64,000 bases of DNA from Amoebidium appalachense (taxonomy: Eukaryota; Protista; Ichthyosporea), in assembly GCA_963693365.1 (NCBI GenBank), contig CAVNZM010000014.1, positions 5,270,001-5,334,000 of the forward strand, written 5' to 3'. This document shows positions 757 to 64,000 of this stretch, piece by piece. Made by a program: the position numbers and the translations under genes. A model generated the notes under the pieces. The model was not told the origin of the DNA and searched no databases. It saw nothing but the letters and a program-made list of their open reading frames with translations. Position 1 is the first letter of the stretch, and the number at the start of each line of letters is the position of its first letter.

Positions 757-1612
757 GGGGGTGATGAAAACAGATGGGAGGAAAGTTTGGGCCGGGGGGG
801 GGGGGGGGGGGGGGGGGGGATATGAAGCTGGGCCGAGACATGGGTGTGTGGGGCTGAAGCAGAGAGATAGGAGGGGGGGGATCTTTATGGGGAAAAAAAA
901 GAAAAACCGAAATGTGCGCAGAGTTGGCTCAGGGAGAAATGCATCCTCTCTTGACTGTACCACCTAGGCCATTATCACAACCTGGGTTGCACTTAAGTAC
1001 ATAGCAAAAAGCAAAACATAGCTCATGATCTTCTCTCGTTTCCTTCAGGTTTTCAACGATAAGTGTGTCTCCATCGACATGTTCGATTCCGTCTCTGGCA
1101 TCATACCACCCACATCCACTCCCGTCGCAGCGCCAAAACCACCACCAGCCCAACCAATCGAATCCACTGAACACAACGATGATCTAACCGCCGCAATCTC
1201 TTCCATCACCCCAACTCCCGCCCCCATTCCTACCCCTGCCCCCGCCCCCACACCAAAACCTACCCCTACACCCAAATCCACCACCACCACCCCACCCCCC
1301 AGCAACAAACCCTCTCCACCCACAACACCAAAAACGGTACCGAAACCAACACCGGCCCCCGTGGTTACCCCACCTCCCGCACCCGTTCCGGCGATTTCAA
1401 CCGAGACGAAATCTAGTTTTGTTAACCCTACCTCTACGGATTCTCTTGCGTCGGTTCTTCGCATACAGAAGAAAATTGAACAGGACGTGATGAAGGAGTT
1501 GGGAACGACGGATTTGGATAAGGAGATTGATAGTTGGTTGACGGGCGGGCAGGATGACGATTTGGCGGTGATTGCCGATTCGATGAACGCGCTCAACGAT
1601 TTTTTGAAGTGA
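1..1612 (+). CDS. 3' part of a multi-exon gene; last exon 1049-1612 encodes a Pro/Thr-rich linker and an acidic helical C-terminus (hypothetical protein)
   Basis: Exon 1-59 (..YPVDMPDAQRKDLMLK) ends at an AG|GTGGGT donor. A pyrimidine-rich acceptor (ttccttcag) at 1046-1048 opens a 188-codon non-microsatellite frame (VFNDKCVSIDMFDS...DSMNALNDFLK*). Internal exons not resolved. Confidence 0.65.
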
Positions 1613-1961
1613 GCTTTGTGTGTGTGTTAGGCTATCCCGTTCATTCAGTGTAGTATGACCGACCCCTATTGGCGTGCATTTCAAATGCATTTTTCTACCA
1701 TCCCCCCTCCGGCTTGCCACAGCCAAATCAGGGTGGCACGCGCTTTTTTACAAACACCCGCTTAAAGTTTCAAATAAGGTAATTTGAATACAAACTTTAC
1801 GTTAACAGGATATCGTTATATCCGGAAACGATTAAATTATGGATGGAGTAGTATATCAAGCCAGAGACCTACCTAATAAGTTACACACAGGTTTGCTTCT
1901 AAGCTTAAAGTTTATCTTTTAGGCCCTTTTTGCATGCCAGCAAGAGGAACGGGCTGCGTGT

Positions 1962-2598
<637 letters not shown>

Positions 2599-3129
2599 TG
2601 CGACGTCAGTGACGAGAAAGCCCGAGCCAGGGTTAACGTTGTACGGAGTACGTATTAGTGTGTTTGGTTTTTTGGTTGTTGTCGTGCAAACTGACGTTTG
2701 AAGGGCCTAACAGAACCGCGCACAAACGTCAAATGGATAAACAAGTTGTATCCATGCCACTGTGTGCATAGATGAGGAAGGAGGGACAGAATGCCAGGGT
2801 GTATAAATCAATGGCATATGGGTAGGTTGCAGTCACAGTGAGTGCATTCCATCCACAAGTCATATAGAAATGTTATGACTGTGTGCACCGGCGCCGTGCG
2901 TTTCCAAAACAATTTGACTCTGTGCACATGCACCATCATTGGCGTGGTGGCGCAGAGAGCCGGTGTCATTGCCATCTACTTGTGGGACTGGTTTCAGAAC
3001 TTGAAGTGGACACGTTTTTGGCCGTTCGGTGTGACAGTCCAATTATACCCTCTATAGATCTGAATAAAGAAGTTTCAACAAACTTGATAATGCATACCAT
3101 TCCTTTTCAAACTTAGGAACCTGAAATTT

Positions 3130-3167
<38 letters not shown>

Positions 3168-3465
3168 CTCGCTCCCTCCCCCCCTGCCCCTCCCCCCCCC
3201 CCCCCTCCCCCCCCCCCTCTCCCCTGCGTCCCTGGGCCCTGTCCACTCCCTCCATAGCAAACACCTATGCACACGTGCGCGCGGCGTACACACGCACAAT
3301 GCGCAGGCTCGCGTACCTATGTACACTTGCACACACAGACACACACACATACACAGACGCAACCACACAAGCACACACACGCACATACACACACACACAC
3401 AAACACACACAAACACACAAACACACACACATGCACACACACACACACACACACGCACACACACG

Positions 3466-3571
<106 letters not shown>

Positions 3572-3782
3572 CACACACACGCACACGCACACACGTAGCG
3601 TCACACACGCGCAGCCTCACATGGTGACATACACCCGATACAACCATTACAGCGGACTCTGAGTCAGCCATCCAATCAAAAGATCATGTCTATGTATCAT
3701 GAGTTTCGAGGCTTTCCAATTTCCGGAGAGAGAGAGTGTGTGTGTGTGGGGGGGGGGGGGGGGGGGGGGGGGGTGGGTGGGT

Positions 3783-3832
<50 letters not shown>

Positions 3833-3969
3833 ACACTTGCTGTACGTTCTTTCCTTTAACATTTTTAGGCCAAAACGTATGGGTTATGCTGGCGGGCTCT
3901 AGGGGCCTCATGATTCCACTTGATGGTGGCGCTCATCAGTGGTTTAGATTTTGAGGGTACTGTGGGTGA

Positions 3970-8790
<4,821 letters not shown>

Positions 8791-11591: not shown

Positions 11592-12836
11592 ATGGCCGTT
11601 CAGGCACTAAGCAAAGGTTGTCACGTAGACCCATCTTCAGGTAAACCTTGCCACGTGGATGAAAAGAACGAGTGTGTTCTTGATGATTCGACGGACCATG
11701 CATTGGAAATTAACACGGGAAACGATGGCTCTACTCTTCCAACCGATGCTACCAGCGAAAACCTGAACACACCCCCACGACAGTTGGATTGGGTTTCCAG
11801 ACTGTTAACTCTATGGGTGGCTCTAGCGATGGCCTTCGGGACTCTTCTAAGTCACTATGCACCTGGGGTAAGGGAAGCACTGACTAAAGCGGAAGTAGGG
11901 GATACTAATTTGGTAATTGCCATCGGCCTCATCCTCATGCTTATCCCGCCTCTCGCTAAGGCGCACTATGGTAACATCCTCTCGCTGGATTACTACGTGG
12001 AATACAGGTGGGAGCTGTTGATAAGTGTTGCGCAAAACTGGCTAATTGGCCCTGCACTCATGTTTTTGCTGGCATGGGGTTTCCTCCACAACGAACCGGG
12101 GCTGATGCACGGCATCGTTATGGTCGGTTTGGCAAGATGCATTGCCATGGTTGTGCAATGGAACGAGCTGGCATATGGCGACACGAACCTCTGTGTGGTG
12201 ATGGTTGCCATGAATTCCATCCTTCAGGTGCTTCTCTTTGCTCCAATGGCCCTATTTTACGTCGTTTTCTTGGGCGATGCAGTGGGAGCACCAGCAGATG
12301 GTCTTTCTGGTTCCCAGGCCGTAGTGACGGTTGTTACGAGTGTCCTCATCTACCTGGGCATTCCAATGGTGATTGGTGTGTGTTCGTGGGTGGGGTTGAG
12401 AAGATGGAAGGGGGAGAGTTGGTATTACGAAGTGTTTATCCCCCGTTTGGATCCTTTGGGTTTAATTGCCCTGCTGGTAACGATTGTTTTCATCTTTATT
12501 ATTAAGGGAGAGCAGCTGATAGACAGGCCTCTAGATGTCTTGTTGGCGGCTGTTCCGTTGGTTTTCTACTTCTTGATCATGTTTTTCGGTTCCTTGACTG
12601 TGGCGTTCTTCATGGGTTTTTGCTATGAACGTGCGGCAACCCTAGCTTTCACTGCTGCTAGCAACAACTTCGAGCTGGCTATTGCCATTTCCATTGCTAC
12701 GTTTGGCTCCGAGAGTGATGCATCGTTTGCCACCGTGATGGGACCTCTCATTGAGGTTCCCATCATGTTGATATTTGTACAGATTGCCCTACTTCTAAGG
12801 AAGAGATGGGATGCAAAATTGAAGCGAAGAATGTAA
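11592..12836 (+). CDS. ACR3: Arsenite/antimonite efflux transporter Acr3 (BART/SBF superfamily), 414 aa, intronless
   Basis: About 10 hydrophobic segments and the family signatures QNWLIGPALMF, GLARCIAMVVQWNELAYGD, AASNNFELAIA and GPLIEVP. ATG in a caccATGG context at 11592. Confidence 0.96.
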   Translation: MAVQALSKGCHVDPSSGKPCHVDEKNECVLDDSTDHALEINTGNDGSTLPTDATSENLNTPPRQLDWVSRLLTLWVALAMAFGTLLSHYAPGVREALTKAEVGDTNLVIAIGLILMLIPPLAKAHYGNILSLDYYVEYRWELLISVAQNWLIGPALMFLLAWGFLHNEPGLMHGIVMVGLARCIAMVVQWNELAYGDTNLCVVMVAMNSILQVLLFAPMALFYVVFLGDAVGAPADGLSGSQAVVTVVTSVLIYLGIPMVIGVCSWVGLRRWKGESWYYEVFIPRLDPLGLIALLVTIVFIFIIKGEQLIDRPLDVLLAAVPLVFYFLIMFFGSLTVAFFMGFCYERAATLAFTAASNNFELAIAISIATFGSESDASFATVMGPLIEVPIMLIFVQIALLLRKRWDAKLKRRM

Positions 12837-22703: not shown

Positions 22704-23878
22704 ACATCCTCTCCCTCCTCGCCCAATCTTTATCCCCCTCCTTCCCCCCCCCCCCCTCCCTCCCCCCCCTTCCCCACCTCTTCGCCCTTTTTCGATACCA
22801 TTTTTTCTTTTTGGGTGCATTGTCCGAGACCCATACATCTCCTCTTTGCTCCTTAACTAGTCAAGACAATGATAAGAGAAGGCCCCCTAAAGGAAAGGGG
22901 TGGTGGTGGTGGTGGTGGTGGGTTGGGGGGGGGGGGGGGGGGGGGGGAGGGGGGGGGGGGGGGGGGGAGGACTTGATATCTCTACATCACGTTCGAGAAA
23001 GTATCACATTCCAGCTCACATTCCAGCACTTCTGATTGGATGGTGGTTGCCATGCCAACAGAAGGACACCAATGAGCCGCTCCCATTTGCCTTCTATCCA
23101 AACCTGTGGGCGGAAGAACCGTCGCTGTTGAATCTTGTTACCACCATTTTGATGAACGAGTATATCCCCCCCCCCCCCCCCCCCCCCCCACGAAACACAC
23201 ACACCCTCCTCCCCCCCCTTTCTCCCTCGCTCTCTCCCTTCACATCCTCCCCCCCCCCCCCCCCCGTCTCCCTCACTCCTTCCCTTCACACTCTCCACTC
23301 CCCCCCCCCCCCTCCCCCCCCCCCCCCCCTTCCCCATATTGGTCTCTCTTCAAGTGTCTTCTGCCTGCACGTTTTCTATCTGTTCCATTTTACGCTTCGA
23401 CTTCGGGGTTTGTTTTTGTGACGTTTTGTGTTCCTTTGGTGCCTCCTTCATATCTCCAACCCTCTAATGCACACATACCCCCCCCCCCTCCCCCCCCTCC
23501 CCCCCCCCCCCCCCCCCTCCCCCTTCTCTTCTCCCCCTCCCTACCCCTTCCCTTCCACCCTTACCTCTTCACTAGTTGCTGTCTTATCTCGCCCGGCTAC
23601 TTTGTTTCAGTTTGCGTAATTGTTTCAGACATGTCTGTTTTGTTTGCGTCGACTAATGCATCTCAATCCCCTCCCCCCCCCCCCCCCCCTCTCCCTCCGC
23701 CCCAATCTCACCCATCCCCTCCCCCCCCTCCCCCCCCCCCCCCCCCCCCCCCCGGAACCCCCCTGATGATGGGCCCTGTTCAAGTGTCTTCTGCCTGCAC
23801 ACTGCTCATTTTTGTGACGTTTTTGCTTTTGCTCTTTGTTGTCTCCTCCATATTTCCAACCCTCTAACGCATACATCC

Positions 23879-25190: not shown

Positions 25191-25558
25191 TTAATGGTTC
25201 AACTTGAGGTTTTCATTTTTGTGACGTTTGATATTCTGTCCTTTGGTGTCTCCTCCATATTTCCAACCCTCTAATGCACACATCCAGCCCCCCCCCCCCC
25301 CCCCCCCCCCCCCCTCCCCCCCCCCCCCCCCCTTCCCCCTCCATCCCGTGTCACGCACCTTTAGGCGCGCTAACCACTCGGCATCCGTTTTGAAATTCTC
25401 GTTCCTTTAATGCATGTATATTTCGGATGCAAGGTGGAAAGGAGAGGGGGAGAGAGGAGAGGAGCGGAAGGGGAGTAAGAGGGGGGAAAGGGGACTTGGG
25501 GACGAGGGGGGAAAAGGGAGGAGGATGGATGGGGTATGGGGTGTGTCTGTGCGTGTGT

Positions 25559-27302: not shown

Positions 27303-29086
27303 GCAGGAGGGGTATGGGCGGCATCAAGACGACGAGGGATATTTGCGCCACCACACAGAGGATGCAGAGGGGTGGGTGTGCTCTCTCTCTCTGCCTCTCT
27401 CCTCTCCCTTCCTCCCTCCCTCCATCCCCCCCTCCCTCCCTCCCTCCCTCCCTTCCTGCCTGCCTCCCTGCCCCCCTCCCTCCCTCCCTCCCTCCCTCCC
27501 TCCCTCCCTCCCTGCCTCCCTCCCTCCCTTCCCTCCCCCCCCCCCCCCCCCTCCTCCCTCCCTCCCTCCCTCCCTCCCTCCCTCCCTCCCTCCCTCCCTC
27601 CCTCCCTCCCTCCCTCCCTCCCTCCCTCCCTCCCTCCCGGCATCATGGCCTCCCTGCTTCCCTCCCATCCTCCCTCCCCCCTCCCTCGGTTGCCTCCCTC
27701 CCCCTCTTCCTCAATCCCCCGGTGCTCCTTCAACTTTTTGGTTCCAGGTTCCAGCTTTCTGTCTGGCATCCCCGGGCATACGAGCAAAACGACTGTGGTG
27801 CTGCGTTTTCGTTACCTGTACCGTGTTGTGTTATCTTAGGTGTACGGTGTTATGTGGTTCACCGATCTGGTTTTTGATTGGTGCGGCTGGATGGCATTCC
27901 TGTCCCACAATCACGGCTACGAAATTGCTTTGGTATAAAAGCAATTCGGTAGGTCAGTTCATCTGGGGAATGATTGCCGGTAATGGCGATCTGGCACAAT
28001 AAATGGTTGCGCCTTTCAATGACGTACACCAGCCCGCCACATAGTAACAGTAAGCCAAGCTCCCAAAAGAGCGACCGCGAGCCGGACACGACAAGCTACA
28101 CCCCCGCTGGGTCTTTCGTGCCCATGGAGTCGAGTCAGGAGACTCTAGCTTGTCCTTTGCGGGAGGGGATTGTTATGTGGTTCACCGATCTGGTTTTTGA
28201 TTGGTGCGGCTGGATGGCATTCCTGTCCCACAATCACGGCTACGAAATTGCTTTGGTATAAAAGCAATTCGGTAGGTCAGTTCATCTGGGGAATGATTGC
28301 CGGTAATGGCGATCTGGCACAATAAATGGTTGCGCCTTTCAATGACGTACACCAGCCCGCCACATAGTAACAGTAAGCCAAGCTCCCAAAAGAGCGACCG
28401 CGAGCCGGACACGACATACGGTGAGGTGTTTCATCAAAGTGTACGGTGTTGTGTTTTCGTCATCTCTGCCTCGCTGTGTTTTCTTTCACTGTACGGTGAG
28501 TTGTGTACAGATGCGAACATTGGACAGGCACTAAGTCGGTTTCTCCCGCAGCTGTGGTGGGAGCATTCCTATTGAATCATAGCCATGCCCAGTTAAATTG
28601 TCTTTCTTTCCGCATGTGGGGCAGGCCGATTTATGTTTTGTTCCTGTTCAAGACATCATGAATTCAGTGTTAGATTCATTCTGGTGGTACTATTTTTATC
28701 CCCAGGCGGCCTCTTTCGACAACTGAGATAAAGTCATCCATCACGGCGTTCACCTTTAACTTCTACAGTATTCCGGAGGAGGACGGTGGCTGGGAGGTAA
28801 GGTTTATTTTCTTGCTGTTGGGACACGGGAAGGTGTGGCTTCTTTAAGGAGCAAGCTATGCTAAATCCGATTTGGCAAGCATGCACGCTTGAACGTGTAG
28901 CTTACATGCACACACACATGCGCGCGCGCACACACACACACACACATAAACATGCACACACACACACACGTGTATGCACATCTGTACACACACACAGACA
29001 GATGCGCATGTGCACATACACACCAACACACAAATGCACACATGCACACCCGCACACACACACACACACACACATACACAGACACA

Positions 29087-30702: not shown

Positions 30703-32262
30703 CCCCTCCCATGCACACAGATCACACAAATACAGAGATGCACGGGTGTGCGTGAATTCCCAACCCCCACTCCGATTTTGAGCGTGTGTTGGTGTCTTTT
30801 TGCTCATGCTCATGTGTGTGTGTGTTGGTGTCTTTTTGCTCATGCTCATGTGTGTGTGTGTTGGTGTCTTTTTGCTCATGCTCATGTGTGTGTGTGTTGG
30901 TGTCTTTTTGCTCATGCTCATGTGTGTGTGTGTTGGTGTCTTTTTGCTCATGCTCATGTGTGTGTGTGTTGGTGTCTTTTTGCTCATGCTCATGTGTGTG
31001 TGTGTTGGTGTCTTTTTGCTCATGCTCATGTGTGTGTGTGTTGGTGTCTTTTTGCTCATGCTCATGTGTGTGTGTGTTGGTGTCTTTTTGCTCATGCTCA
31101 TGTGTGTGTGTGTTGGTGTCTTTTTGCTCATGCTCATGTGTGTGTGTGTTGGTGTCTTTTTGCTCATGCTCATGTGTGTGTGTGTTGGTGTCTTTTTGCT
31201 CATGCTCATGTGTGTGTGTGTTGGTGCCTTTTTGCTCATGCTCATGTGTGTGTGTGTTGGTGTCTTTTTGCTCATGCTCATGTGTGTGTGTGTTGGTGTC
31301 TTTTTGCTCATGCTCATGTGTGTGTGTGTTGGTGTCTTTTTGCTCATGCTCATGTGTGTGTGTGTTGGTGTCTTTTTGCTCATGCTCATGTGTGTGTGTG
31401 TTGGTGTCTTTTTGCTCATGCTCATGTGTGTGTGTGTTGGTGTCTTTTTGCTCATGCTCATGTGTGTGTGTGTTGGTGTCTTTTTGCTCATGCTCATGTG
31501 TGTGTGTGTTGGTGTCTTTTTGCTCATGCTCATGTGTGTGTGTGTTGGTGTCTTTTTGCTCATGCTCATGTGTGTGTGTGTTGGTGCCTTTTTGCTCATG
31601 CTCATGTGTGTGTGTGTTGGTGTCTTTTTGCTCATGCTCATGTGTGTGTGTGTTGGTGCCTTTTTGCTCATGCTCATGTGTGTGTGTGTTGGTGTCTTTT
31701 TGCTCATGCTCATGTGTGTGTGTGTTGGTGTCTTTTTGCTCATGCTCATGTGTGTGTGTGTTGGTGTCTTTTTGCTCATGCTCATGTGTGTGTGTGTTGG
31801 TGTCTTTTTGCTCATGCTCATGTGTGTGTGTGTTGGTGTCTTTTTGCTCATGCTCATGTGTGTGTGTGTTGGTGTCTTTTTGCTCATGCTCATGTGTGTG
31901 TGTGTTGGTGTCTTTTTGCTCATGCTCATGTGTGTGTGTGTTGGTGTCTTTTTGCTCATGCTCATGTGTGTGTGTGTTGGTGTCTTTTTGCTCATGCTCA
32001 TGTGTGTGTGTGTGGTGTGTGTGGCGTGACTCCACACCCACTGCTATATGCCCAAACGACGTTTGAGAGAGGACATAACAGGATGCCAACACTGTAGGTC
32101 TTTCTTTTTTTTTTTTAACTGGTTTCTGGCATCCATCAACAGATCGATCTTGGAAAACTATTGTGGTCCTCCTCCCCCCCCCCCCCCCCCCCCCGCCCCC
32201 GCCCCCTCCTCCCCCCTTCCCTTGATGTAAAAGAGGCTAAGGGGTCGAAGCTCAGATGCAAT

Positions 32263-38656: not shown

Positions 38657-41594
38657 AGGGTGCCTTTTTATGACGTCATATAATTTCACATGACGTCACC
38701 TTTCAGGCTGTATTTGGGCATGTTCACGGTGGCCCGTGCCAGCTACTCCATCGGACCAAGGGGGTTCCTTCGGTTCATGTTTCTATTGGTCGAGCATCGT
38801 CCGGCAACCACCGTGGAGGCTTGGAGGCTGGCACGCCATGTAATGACTCCCCCTTCCCCCCTGAGGATGGGCTCTGCTTGTTATGTGTGTGTGGTCTGCA
38901 CTCTGCATCGTGTTGTCCGTTATGTATGAATGTGTACCTCGTATTATAAAATGCATTTTAACTCTTCCATCCCCCCCCCCCCCTCTCTCTCTCTCCCCCC
39001 CCCCCCCCCTCCCCCCTCCCCCCCCCTCCCCTCCCCCCCAACCACCACCACCGCCCACACCCACACACCCACTGCCACCATCAACCACGACCACAGCCAT
39101 CACCACCACGCACCATCCATCCCCTGCATTCCCCATTCGATTCTTGTGCTTGATCTGTCGGTTGTTTTGGTGCGAAACGCAGGCCCCTGGGGGGGGAGGG
39201 AGGGGGGAGGGGGGGAGGGGGGGGAGGGGGTAAGCCAGGGGAGGGGGGGAAAGGGGGGGCGGGGGGAGGGGGCTCTTAGGTAAGGTTGTGTTGCTGGAAA
39301 TGCGGATGTTTAACGGGTGGATTGAATGGCTAGGCAAGTCCTTGGTTCCGGTTAGCGTGGATGGTGTGTACGTGCCAGTGTGCATGTGTGTGCACAAAAG
39401 TTCCGTTCTTCCTTTATCTTCATTTCGTTGGTGCTGTGGGAAGGAGAAGGGTGTGGGGGGGGGAGGAGCGGGGAGGAGGAGAGTGAGGAAAGAAAAGGAA
39501 GATGGGAAGGGGGGGGGGGGGGGGAGAAGGAGTGTGTGTTTGTTGGGGGGGGGGGGGGGTTTGAGGGAAGGGCTTGATATAGGAATATCTCAGACTTGGA
39601 GATGTGCTGTTCTGCGAGCTTCATGGTTCGAAACGACTGTATGGGTTATCCCATTGTTCTCACTATGTTTCCCACCAATACAGAGGCTACACACTGCGGA
39701 TTTTCTTACCCCAGACCAGAAAAGCGCACTTGCGCTCTGTTTGGACAATAATTACACATCCGCAAATGGGAGTCTCCCACCCGTCGACTTGGGTCTGTTG
39801 GTTGCAATTGGTGGAGAAACGCACAAAACAAATGGAGGCATAAGCGAGGCGGACTGCGACGAATTCGACACGGTTTTGGAGGGACATCGGCATCACGTAC
39901 CGATGGCGATTACCGATCCGATTGAACCGATTCAAAGTGAGATCATCCAATCAAATCTTCAAGAAATTGGTTGTCCTGGTGATAACGAATTCGATTTTAA
40001 ATACCCGATCGATTGCGCGTTTTCAGCACCTGAACCCATCGCCGCGGCGTCTGCGTGGGAGGATTTTGGGCCAATCGGAACGCCCGTTATGTCAGGCTCG
40101 CCGCTTTTTAGCCAATCAGATATCTACGTGCATGATTATCACCCAGTAGCAAGCATGCACGTGGTCGACCCGGAGCCTTCCGAAATTCACCGCCGGATGT
40201 CATTGGATACTGAGCAGCCAATCAAGAAGCCCCGTAAACCGCGAAGACCCAAGAACGCACCAATGATAGCCGACCTTGGCCCGACGGAGGCCTGGCCACC
40301 AATGGAAATCCTTGACGAGGGTGGTCCGCGACCAATCGATTTGCGGGAAACGGATCCGTGGATTCCAACGTCCGTCGGCCAATTCGCACACCAAACACCC
40401 GTGCTGCAAAACCCGGATTATTCATTGGGGAACCCAGGGGTATTGGCGTTTTCCGGGAATGATGCCGATTGCAAAGATGAGATCCTTGATGACTCCAATT
40501 TCTTGGATAGTGGGGTTTTATGGCCGTCGGCGTGTGAATTTGCGCCTGCCGTGATTGCAACCCCCCAAACTCCATTTCAACGGGGGGTTGAATGTGCAAT
40601 GAAACCCCCTAGTCCAATTGGCACGAATGACTGGAATGCAGAAGCCCCTGTTGGTGCCACGGGTATTGCACAGAATTCGGTAGAAGCAAGATGGGAGGGG
40701 GAGGATTGGACGAATGTTGAAAGTTTCCTAATCGATGAAAGCGATCTTATACTTGACCCGCCACCGAATGTTTTGCATCCGGTTCGACCCAACCCACATG
40801 GAATCGAACCGGCAAAGGTTGATATATTCCCTACGCCCAGCCCTAACAACCCCAGCGGCATACCACCAGTGCATCGGAATTCACCCACCGACCAATACGA
40901 TTCACAGACGGTAATGATTGGTTGGCAATCAGCTAACCAGCGTGAACCCCCGCCGCCTCAGCGCAAAGGCAATATGAGATTTGTAGCCCAAGAGAGGAAC
41001 GCGACACCTATTCACAGGGAAAACGCCAGCCCAACAACACTGCCTTACGTAAGGCGATGGATGAGTGAAGATCAAATACACACCAATCAGAACAAGCTGG
41101 AGGATTCCCCACGTCGGGTATGTTGCACAGGGCCATGCTGTGAAACAAAACCCGGTTTCTGCCAGGATTCGAGATTGGAAAACCGATTTCATCATCAACT
41201 TTTGGTTTCCTGTCGAAGTTCGAGAGAACACGCCAATACGTATACCATGAATGACCGGGGGGTTTCCGCAAACTCTGAACCCAATACACCACCAGTCTAT
41301 TATCAGACTCATCCCGCACATTCGACTCCACCAATGATTTTCCACCGACAACATTCCGCGTATGCGACTCAGCCAATGACAGCGCACCGTACGCCTTCTC
41401 TGGAATCCACGGAGCGAGAAAATTTCCAAAGTTGGCAGTATTTCAAGCCGTATGGTAGGGTGGTTCACCCGTTCTCGAATTGTGTTGCCGTTCGTTCGCA
41501 TTCTCATCCGTATCCGTTGTCGCACCAATGGGTAGGGAGAAGGCACACAGAAACGTGCAGATGTTGCGGCGAGTATTGTCCGCCAATAGAATGA
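35642..41594 (+). CDS. Divergent SRA/YDG (SAD) domain protein with an upstream Cys-rich segment and a ~630-aa mostly disordered C-terminus
   Basis: Phase-compatible exons 35642-35790, 36556-36670, 37406-37517, 38126-38211, 38707-38839 and 39684-41594 give [89 protein letters not shown]. This is colinear with UHRF1-type SRA motifs (HYGPIPG, QVSESGV, DGAYSLVL, FTYTGSGG, GKPVRV, YDGIYKV, GKSGFLVWRYLL). Confidence 0.8.

Positions 41595-42999: not shown

Positions 43000-53900
<10,901 letters not shown>

Positions 53901-57607: not shown

Positions 57608-64000
<6,393 letters not shown>

Follow-up and report, generated by a model that had tools for sequence, protein, structure and literature searches.

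TRIMs are defined, in the sections of PMC10886601 available to us, as non-coding elements of less than 1 kb that carry a pair of LTRs, a primer-binding-site (PBS) position and a polypurine tract (PPT); the PBS types reported in those sections complement tRNA 3′ ends or anticodon loops. For plant elements, the accessible text of PMC6317226 distinguishes three primers: a whole tRNA, a tRNA half produced by a cut in the anticodon stem, and a self-primer. A 5′ piece of an internally cut tRNA is the primer in the half-tRNA group, which comprises copia, Ty5, Osser, Bryco, Bianca, fungal Copia and Helenus (same sections of PMC6317226 and PMC10886601), with annealing and cut both located at the anticodon arm. 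In Tf1, the site pairs with 11 nt at the 5′ end of an RNA, which RNase H cleaves between bases 11 and 12 (available part of PMC7175516); the Tf1/sushi elements (Tf1, Tf2, Tj1, Tosmo and Tcn1) have in common a short primer from an RNA 5′ terminus, released when the RNA is cut where the duplex ends and supplied by the element's own LTR. Priming is reported as unexplained for Skipper of the dictyostelids (PMC5006619), SM-Tcn1 (PMC2864245), Tcn2–5 (PMC7175516) and Tca3 (PMC4139406), for which the accessible descriptions give neither a TGG nor a self-primer.

The locus described here lies in a 64,000-nt stretch of Amoebidium appalachense DNA (hereafter, the window). Positions 27848–28416 form a 569-bp element with two direct LTRs that begin with TG and end with CA, enclosing a core of 77 nt. 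The features of the element are as follows.

27843–27847, + strand: target-site duplication TACGG, left copy, from the sequence
27848–28093, + strand: 5′ LTR, 246 bp, TG...CA; its bounds are those at which contigs of the family start and end
27934–27939, + strand: TATA-like box TATAAA, predicted Pol II promoter, from a consensus motif scan
27954–27959, + strand: initiator-like TCAGTT, with a predicted transcription start near 27957, from a consensus motif scan
27998–28003, + strand: AATAAA poly(A) signal, present also in the 3′ LTR, from a consensus motif scan
28090–28098, + strand: 5′ arm of a predicted 9-bp stem, spanning the LTR/PBS junction, from folding
28094–28105, + strand: PBS position, perfect complement of tRNA nt 1–12, from the sequence
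28146–28154, + strand: 3′ arm of the predicted 9-bp stem, closing a three-way junction with two hairpins, from folding
28161–28169, + strand: polypurine tract GGGAGGGGA, followed by a single T and then the 3′ LTR, from the sequence
28171–28416, + strand: 3′ LTR, same sequence as the 5′ LTR, from comparison of the LTRs
28417–28421, + strand: target-site duplication TACGG, right copy, from the sequence

We take TATAAA, TCAGTT and AATAAA in the LTR to be Pol II signals, as judged by consensus sequences. The TATA box, AATAAA and the purine tract together set the orientation of the element as +, and its predicted RNA would run from approximately 27957 to approximately 28341, or roughly 385 nt. The TATA-like box also forms the loop of an imperfect palindrome (27917–27952; 36 nt, 78% self-complementary). 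The three reading frames scanned over the element gave no Pfam match, and a second copy was not found within the 64-kb window. The element is a young, non-autonomous TRIM: the two 246-bp LTRs are 100% identical, and TACGG flanks the element on both sides. A preliminary description of this DNA had already called it a young TRIM and had taken apparently identical LTRs and an intact target-site duplication to suggest recent activity. It shares with described TRIMs a size below 1 kb, two LTRs, a PBS position and a PPT, the lack of coding capacity and a 5-bp duplication; unlike the PBS types given for TRIMs in the available sections of PMC10886601, its site corresponds to tRNA nt 1–12.

The sequence AGCTACACCCCC at 28094–28105 directly abuts the 5′ LTR, with a spacer of 0, and matches the complement of a tRNA 5′ end at 12 of 12 positions, ending exactly at tRNA nt 1. 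The core starts with AGCT, the first TGG lies 14 nt into it, and the lack of a TGG at the LTR junction rules out canonical priming from a tRNA 3′ (CCA) end. The preliminary description was therefore right in placing the site directly against the LTR and in noting that a TGG-type PBS is missing. In the window, the complement of the 12-mer has a single occurrence, the one at 28094–28105; it is not present in the LTR.

The tRNA side of the match was examined in viral contigs. With a pattern that had been designed to find tRNA 5′ ends, 86 loci were collected, and in 78 of these the 12-mer lies at position 1 or 2 of a tRNA called by ARAGORN (63 tRNA-Ala and 15 tRNAs of seven other kinds). A further 200 loci, picked for placement of the 12-mer in an anticodon arm, yielded three tRNAs; in each of them the 12-mer occupies position 1, and an internal position was not seen. 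The 12-mer is accordingly at the 5′ end in all 81 called tRNAs that contain it, most of them tRNA-Ala, all from viral contigs and none of them host tRNAs. Eight of the Ala genes appear to be of eukaryote type, judging by their features. The 12-mer had been described as a common 5′ terminus of tRNA-Ala and of some tRNA-Cys; the Ala part is borne out, whereas tRNA-Cys was not seen among the 81. No tRNA gene was detected within the window. The 12-bp duplex between the site and tRNA nt 1–12 has a computed energy of −26.0 kcal/mol.

The reading that we prefer, to which we give an even chance, is that this young TRIM, with a site complementary to tRNA nt 1–12, primes its minus strand from the 5′ end of a host tRNA, most likely tRNA-Ala, with the tRNA annealing and being cut after nt 12 in the manner of Tf1, in trans. 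Such an element would resemble the Tf1/sushi group in its short primer from an RNA 5′ terminus, freed by a cut at the duplex end, and would differ from it in the source of the primer, which would come in trans from a tRNA, the LTR here being without a complement to the site. With the half-tRNA group it would share a primer made from an internally cut 5′ tRNA piece; unlike the anticodon-arm site of that group, as the accessible texts describe it, the site here corresponds to the acceptor strand and the 5′ side of the D-stem.

Self-priming by the LTR was considered in some detail. The best pairing of the LTR with the site, eight of nine positions at 27880–27888 with one G–U pair and one mismatch, was equalled in 81 of 1000 shuffles, and the LTR/site duplex (−10.9 kcal/mol) was matched or bettered in 576 of 1000. 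Tf1-type self-priming is rejected, since this best pairing is at chance level and lies upstream of the TATA-like box; that self-priming is not evident had already been stated on the ground that the LTR lacks the complement. A weaker version, which we regard as rather unlikely, holds that the site is what remains of Tf1-type self-priming that started at 27880 and has since decayed, or else that the tRNA match is fortuitous and another primer is used. The mismatch in the eight-of-nine pairing, at 27884, is one of two positions at which this element differs from the family majority, but pairing with the site fails for both alleles at 27884, and a start at 27880 would leave only 32 nt of LTR before it, again upstream of the TATA-like box. 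With regard to coincidence, an exact 12-mer match has a chance of 5e-8 to 6e-7 per position, or 2e-5 to 3e-4 with four offsets and 100 tRNA 5′ ends; counting a match to any one tRNA 5′ end out of thousands (5000 ends, four offsets) raises the chance to between 1e-3 and 1e-2, both set sizes being assumptions. Many elements were screened overall, which favours coincidence.

Priming of the copia type, from a half tRNA annealed through the anticodon arm of tRNA-Tyr(GTA) with mismatches, appears very improbable. The complement, placed with its 3′ end at nt 39, does read U33-GTA-G37, and the tRNA-Tyr anticodon loop is used by fungal Copia and Helenus (available sections of PMC10886601). This is the only register that combines U33 with a purine at 37, and it requires G32 and C38; no register from nt 37 to nt 44 satisfies Y32, U33 and R37 together. 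Among 155 distinct tRNAs, mostly viral and of bacterial type, the best internal identity was 9 of 12, and the anticodon arms of tRNA-Tyr reached at most 7 of 12. None of the 200 loci chosen for an anticodon-arm placement had the 12-mer there. On the lack of a Y32/U33/R37 register and the absence of internal matches at these loci, in tRNAs other than those of the host, anticodon-arm priming was rejected.

The same 12-mer would be predicted if the primer were the 5′ end of a tRNA-derived transcript acting in trans (from a SINE, from a TRIM of the Helenus kind, or from a self-priming partner with a tRNA-like sequence at the start of its RNA), or if the site had been inherited from such an ancestor. 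TRIMs with tRNA-derived LTRs do exist (PMC10886601) and the RNA 5′-end primer of the Tf1 type is of nearly equal length (PMC7175516), as far as the available parts of these sources go; for Helenus, the former reports no complementarity of the tRNA-like part to the PBS. A scan of the LTR with consensus sequences detected neither an A nor a B box of a Pol III promoter, and the LTR has no tRNA or Rfam match, which argues against such an origin; we consider it unlikely. Across the window, one search returned no Rfam match and another returned two weak ones (E 2.9). Membership in Helenus, Ajax or Cassandra, with their tRNA- or 5S-derived Pol III promoter in the LTR, was likewise rejected, as that promoter was not found.

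Folding of the element RNA predicts that 28090–28098 pairs with 28146–28154 in a 9-bp stem that encloses two hairpins, a feature absent from the preliminary description. The first 5 nt of the primer site would be paired within the RNA (probability 0.96–1.0), and 28099–28103 would be unpaired (0.76–1.0). A match of 9 nt or longer arose in 183 of 20000 shuffles, and the fold z-score is −2.33 for 28086–28160. The stem buries part of the site, and priming might instead rest on the element's own fold: an internal TAGCT would pair with the site beside the LTR, nicking at 28150/28151 would leave a 3′ end in register for priming, and the tRNA match would be a relic or a coincidence. The elements of unexplained priming named above (Tca3, Tcn2–5, SM-Tcn1 and Skipper) give this idea some precedent. 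Only 5 bp would hold such a primer, however, the template would be cut in two by the nick ahead of the purine tract, and the other seven matching bases would be left unexplained; in wider windows, moreover, the fold is no better than in shuffles (z-scores of 0.04 and −0.59). We judge priming of this kind to be distinctly improbable.

The net energy of annealing, with the folds of both partners paid for, was computed with one foreign tRNA-Ala, modifications and tertiary structure being ignored, and was favourable, at −10.0 kcal/mol for nt 1–12, −12.7 kcal/mol for nt 1–33 and −8.9 kcal/mol for the whole unmodified tRNA. Tf1 requires three duplexes (accessible text of bioRxiv 10.1101/2022.12.06.519325). 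Extended pairing of tRNA nt 13–40 with U5, which was apparent at nt 17–36, did not rise above shuffles and was discarded: between 401 and 1390 of 2000 shuffles were equally good, so that we found no tRNA–U5 pairing beyond chance.

Priming from the tRNA 5′ end, if it occurs, might proceed as follows. The particle of a partner element would package the ~385-nt TRIM RNA, and a tRNA, or a tRNA 5′ half, would anneal to it, probably making first contact with the unpaired ACCCC stretch and then opening the 9-bp stem. The overhanging tRNA would be cut after nt 12, probably by the RNase H of the partner, as in Tf1. Plus-strand synthesis would finally run off the 5′ end of the primer and so rebuild a site that ends at tRNA nt 1. 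The earlier proposal was of a very short 5′ tRNA fragment that ends at nt 12; the match to the tRNA 5′ end upholds its first half, while a pre-existing 12-nt fragment seems doubtful to us, and a cut after annealing is favoured, because a cut after nt 12 would fall inside the D-stem.

The site fits no priming mode in the accessible parts of the sources compared. Somewhat more tentatively, at a little less than even, we suggest a fourth class of LTR priming, in which the reverse transcriptase/RNase H of the partner would take the 5′ terminus of host tRNA-Ala and cut after nt 12, leaving the 12-mer as primer. A site for tRNA nt 1–12 would add a fourth primer to the three of PMC6317226, the available text of which also records that no PBS was detected in 6% of the plant elements surveyed; PBS finders restricted to tRNA 3′ ends would miss sites of this kind. 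If the proposal holds, Tf1 chemistry acting on a tRNA in trans could link tRNA priming with self-priming, and it could explain some elements whose priming sites have found no explanation. Skipper, SM-Tcn1, Tcn2–5 and Tca3 are like the present element in lacking a TGG and a self-primer, and Skipper has a pyrimidine-rich tract at the PBS position (available part of PMC5006619), all of these being compared by description only. tRNA-Ala 5′ fragments would, on the same supposition, be possible primers or inhibitors of a mobile element. An RNA of 385 nt and a primer of 12 nt make up a small and direct experimental system.

Part of the stretch is contained in 20 public sequencing runs under three organism labels. 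Contigs were compared for four of the 24 listed runs, namely the DNA runs X1, X2 and X11, and X20, which we guessed to be RNA. The element belongs to a mobile multicopy family with several distinct junctions. Contigs of the family start and stop at the LTR bounds, 27848 and 28093. In X1 the core is represented by a single contig of 135 nt at a depth of 811, compared with 36.7 for the unique left flank and about 1300–4000 for the LTR; the core is thus some 22 times as deep as the flank, which would correspond to about 20 copies, as a rough figure only, depth not being copy number. The sequence of a loose end ahead of the LTR in X20 closes with GACCC, the same five letters with which a loose end past the LTR in X1 opens; the pair implies a second insertion, flanked by a 5-bp duplication. 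Four loose ends are listed past the end of the LTR, and none of them starts with TGG.

No variant falls inside the 12-mer among the listed contigs of X1, X2 and X11, contigs being apt to drop rare variants. Conservation of the site among copies, which had been put forward as a test, is to that extent found, but since the whole core is equally uniform the invariance shows no selection on the site. Two LTR positions set the present element apart from the family majority, 27884 (A in the majority) and 27987 (T in the majority); both of its LTRs have C at these positions, a shared difference that would be expected if both had been copied from one RNA. X20, with its guessed run type, has no contig over the core, and the left flank is without contig cover in X2; neither gap counts as evidence.

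Several further contigs touch the LTR. Both X1 and X2 contain an LTR that stops at 27986 and gives way to other sequence, the same in the two runs; this is a truncated or interrupted LTR copy common to two organism labels. A 792-nt contig of X20 (depth 970) contains LTR positions 27988–28093 and then approximately 680 nt of other sequence, the first 30 letters of which share an 11-mer with LTR positions 28022–28032; this other sequence may be a flank reached by read-through, or it may be the core of a different element that shares the LTR. A poly(A) site at 28015 was considered and ruled out, as two X20 contigs overlap there by ~30 nt, which marks an assembly break.

Relatives of the element were sought in metagenome and viral contig collections, both poor in eukaryotic repeats. 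The 22-mer at the family junction has no match in the metagenome contigs. A pattern combining the site with a PPT gave 104 matches there, 89 of them distinct, and among the 80 for which flanks were examined the only one bearing a repeat proved to be a duplicated bacterial-type ORF. In the viral contigs, searches yielded 7 and 76 matches; none of these was LTR-like, and two had weak repeats of 14–25 nt. An autonomous partner was not seen either: the 138 complex segments of the window that were searched, out of 449, gave no reverse transcriptase or integrase match. Since the searches turned up no independent element with a site of this kind, the case depends on a single family.

Neither the 12-mer nor any of three variants of it was found in the supplement text of PMC6317226 (17,418 characters, the main element table probably lying outside it), PMC6875170, PMC4007536 (file 1 lying outside) and PMC10886601, nor was a shorter motif found in the supplement of PMC5006619; a match split by a line break in a sequence file could escape such comparisons of text. 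The accessible parts of PMC5006619, PMC6317226, PMC4600332, PMC10886601, PMC7175516, PMC4139406, PMC2864245, PMC13570524 and bioRxiv 10.1101/2022.12.06.519325 do not describe a PBS for a tRNA 5′ terminus. More generally, we found no description of priming from a tRNA 5′ terminus in the open-access literature, a scope that leaves aside Repbase reports and most subscription papers.

The window itself is microsatellite-rich, eukaryote-like DNA. The element sits in a short degenerate repeat of TGTACGGTG-like units (27817–27847 and 28417–28500), and a low-depth X2 contig also matches 27839–27847 before the LTR, a weak hint that the element may have a target preference. Close by, at 30779–32000, is a very homogeneous 36-bp minisatellite of at least 34 copies. 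An intronless gene of the ACR3 family of arsenite transporters (PF01758) is located at 11592–12836 on the + strand; its best named matches are bacterial and archaeal, at ~50% identity, and a horizontal origin is possible. Another exon of the window gave no match at all. A stop-free frame of 786 codons extends over 39234–41594 (+ strand), the complex part of which has no Pfam match. The window also holds three older families of short dispersed repeats, with identities of 70–87% as a range common to all three.

4034–4223, 6878–6959, 7480–7664 and 8642–8757: older repeat family one
23396–23476, 23806–23878 and 25198–25285: older repeat family two
44462–44543, 51645–51733, 53333–53423 and 53600–53681: older repeat family three

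Towards the far end of the window, 57611–57916 on the − strand is an exon that encodes a MYND zinc finger (PF01753, E 4e-13).
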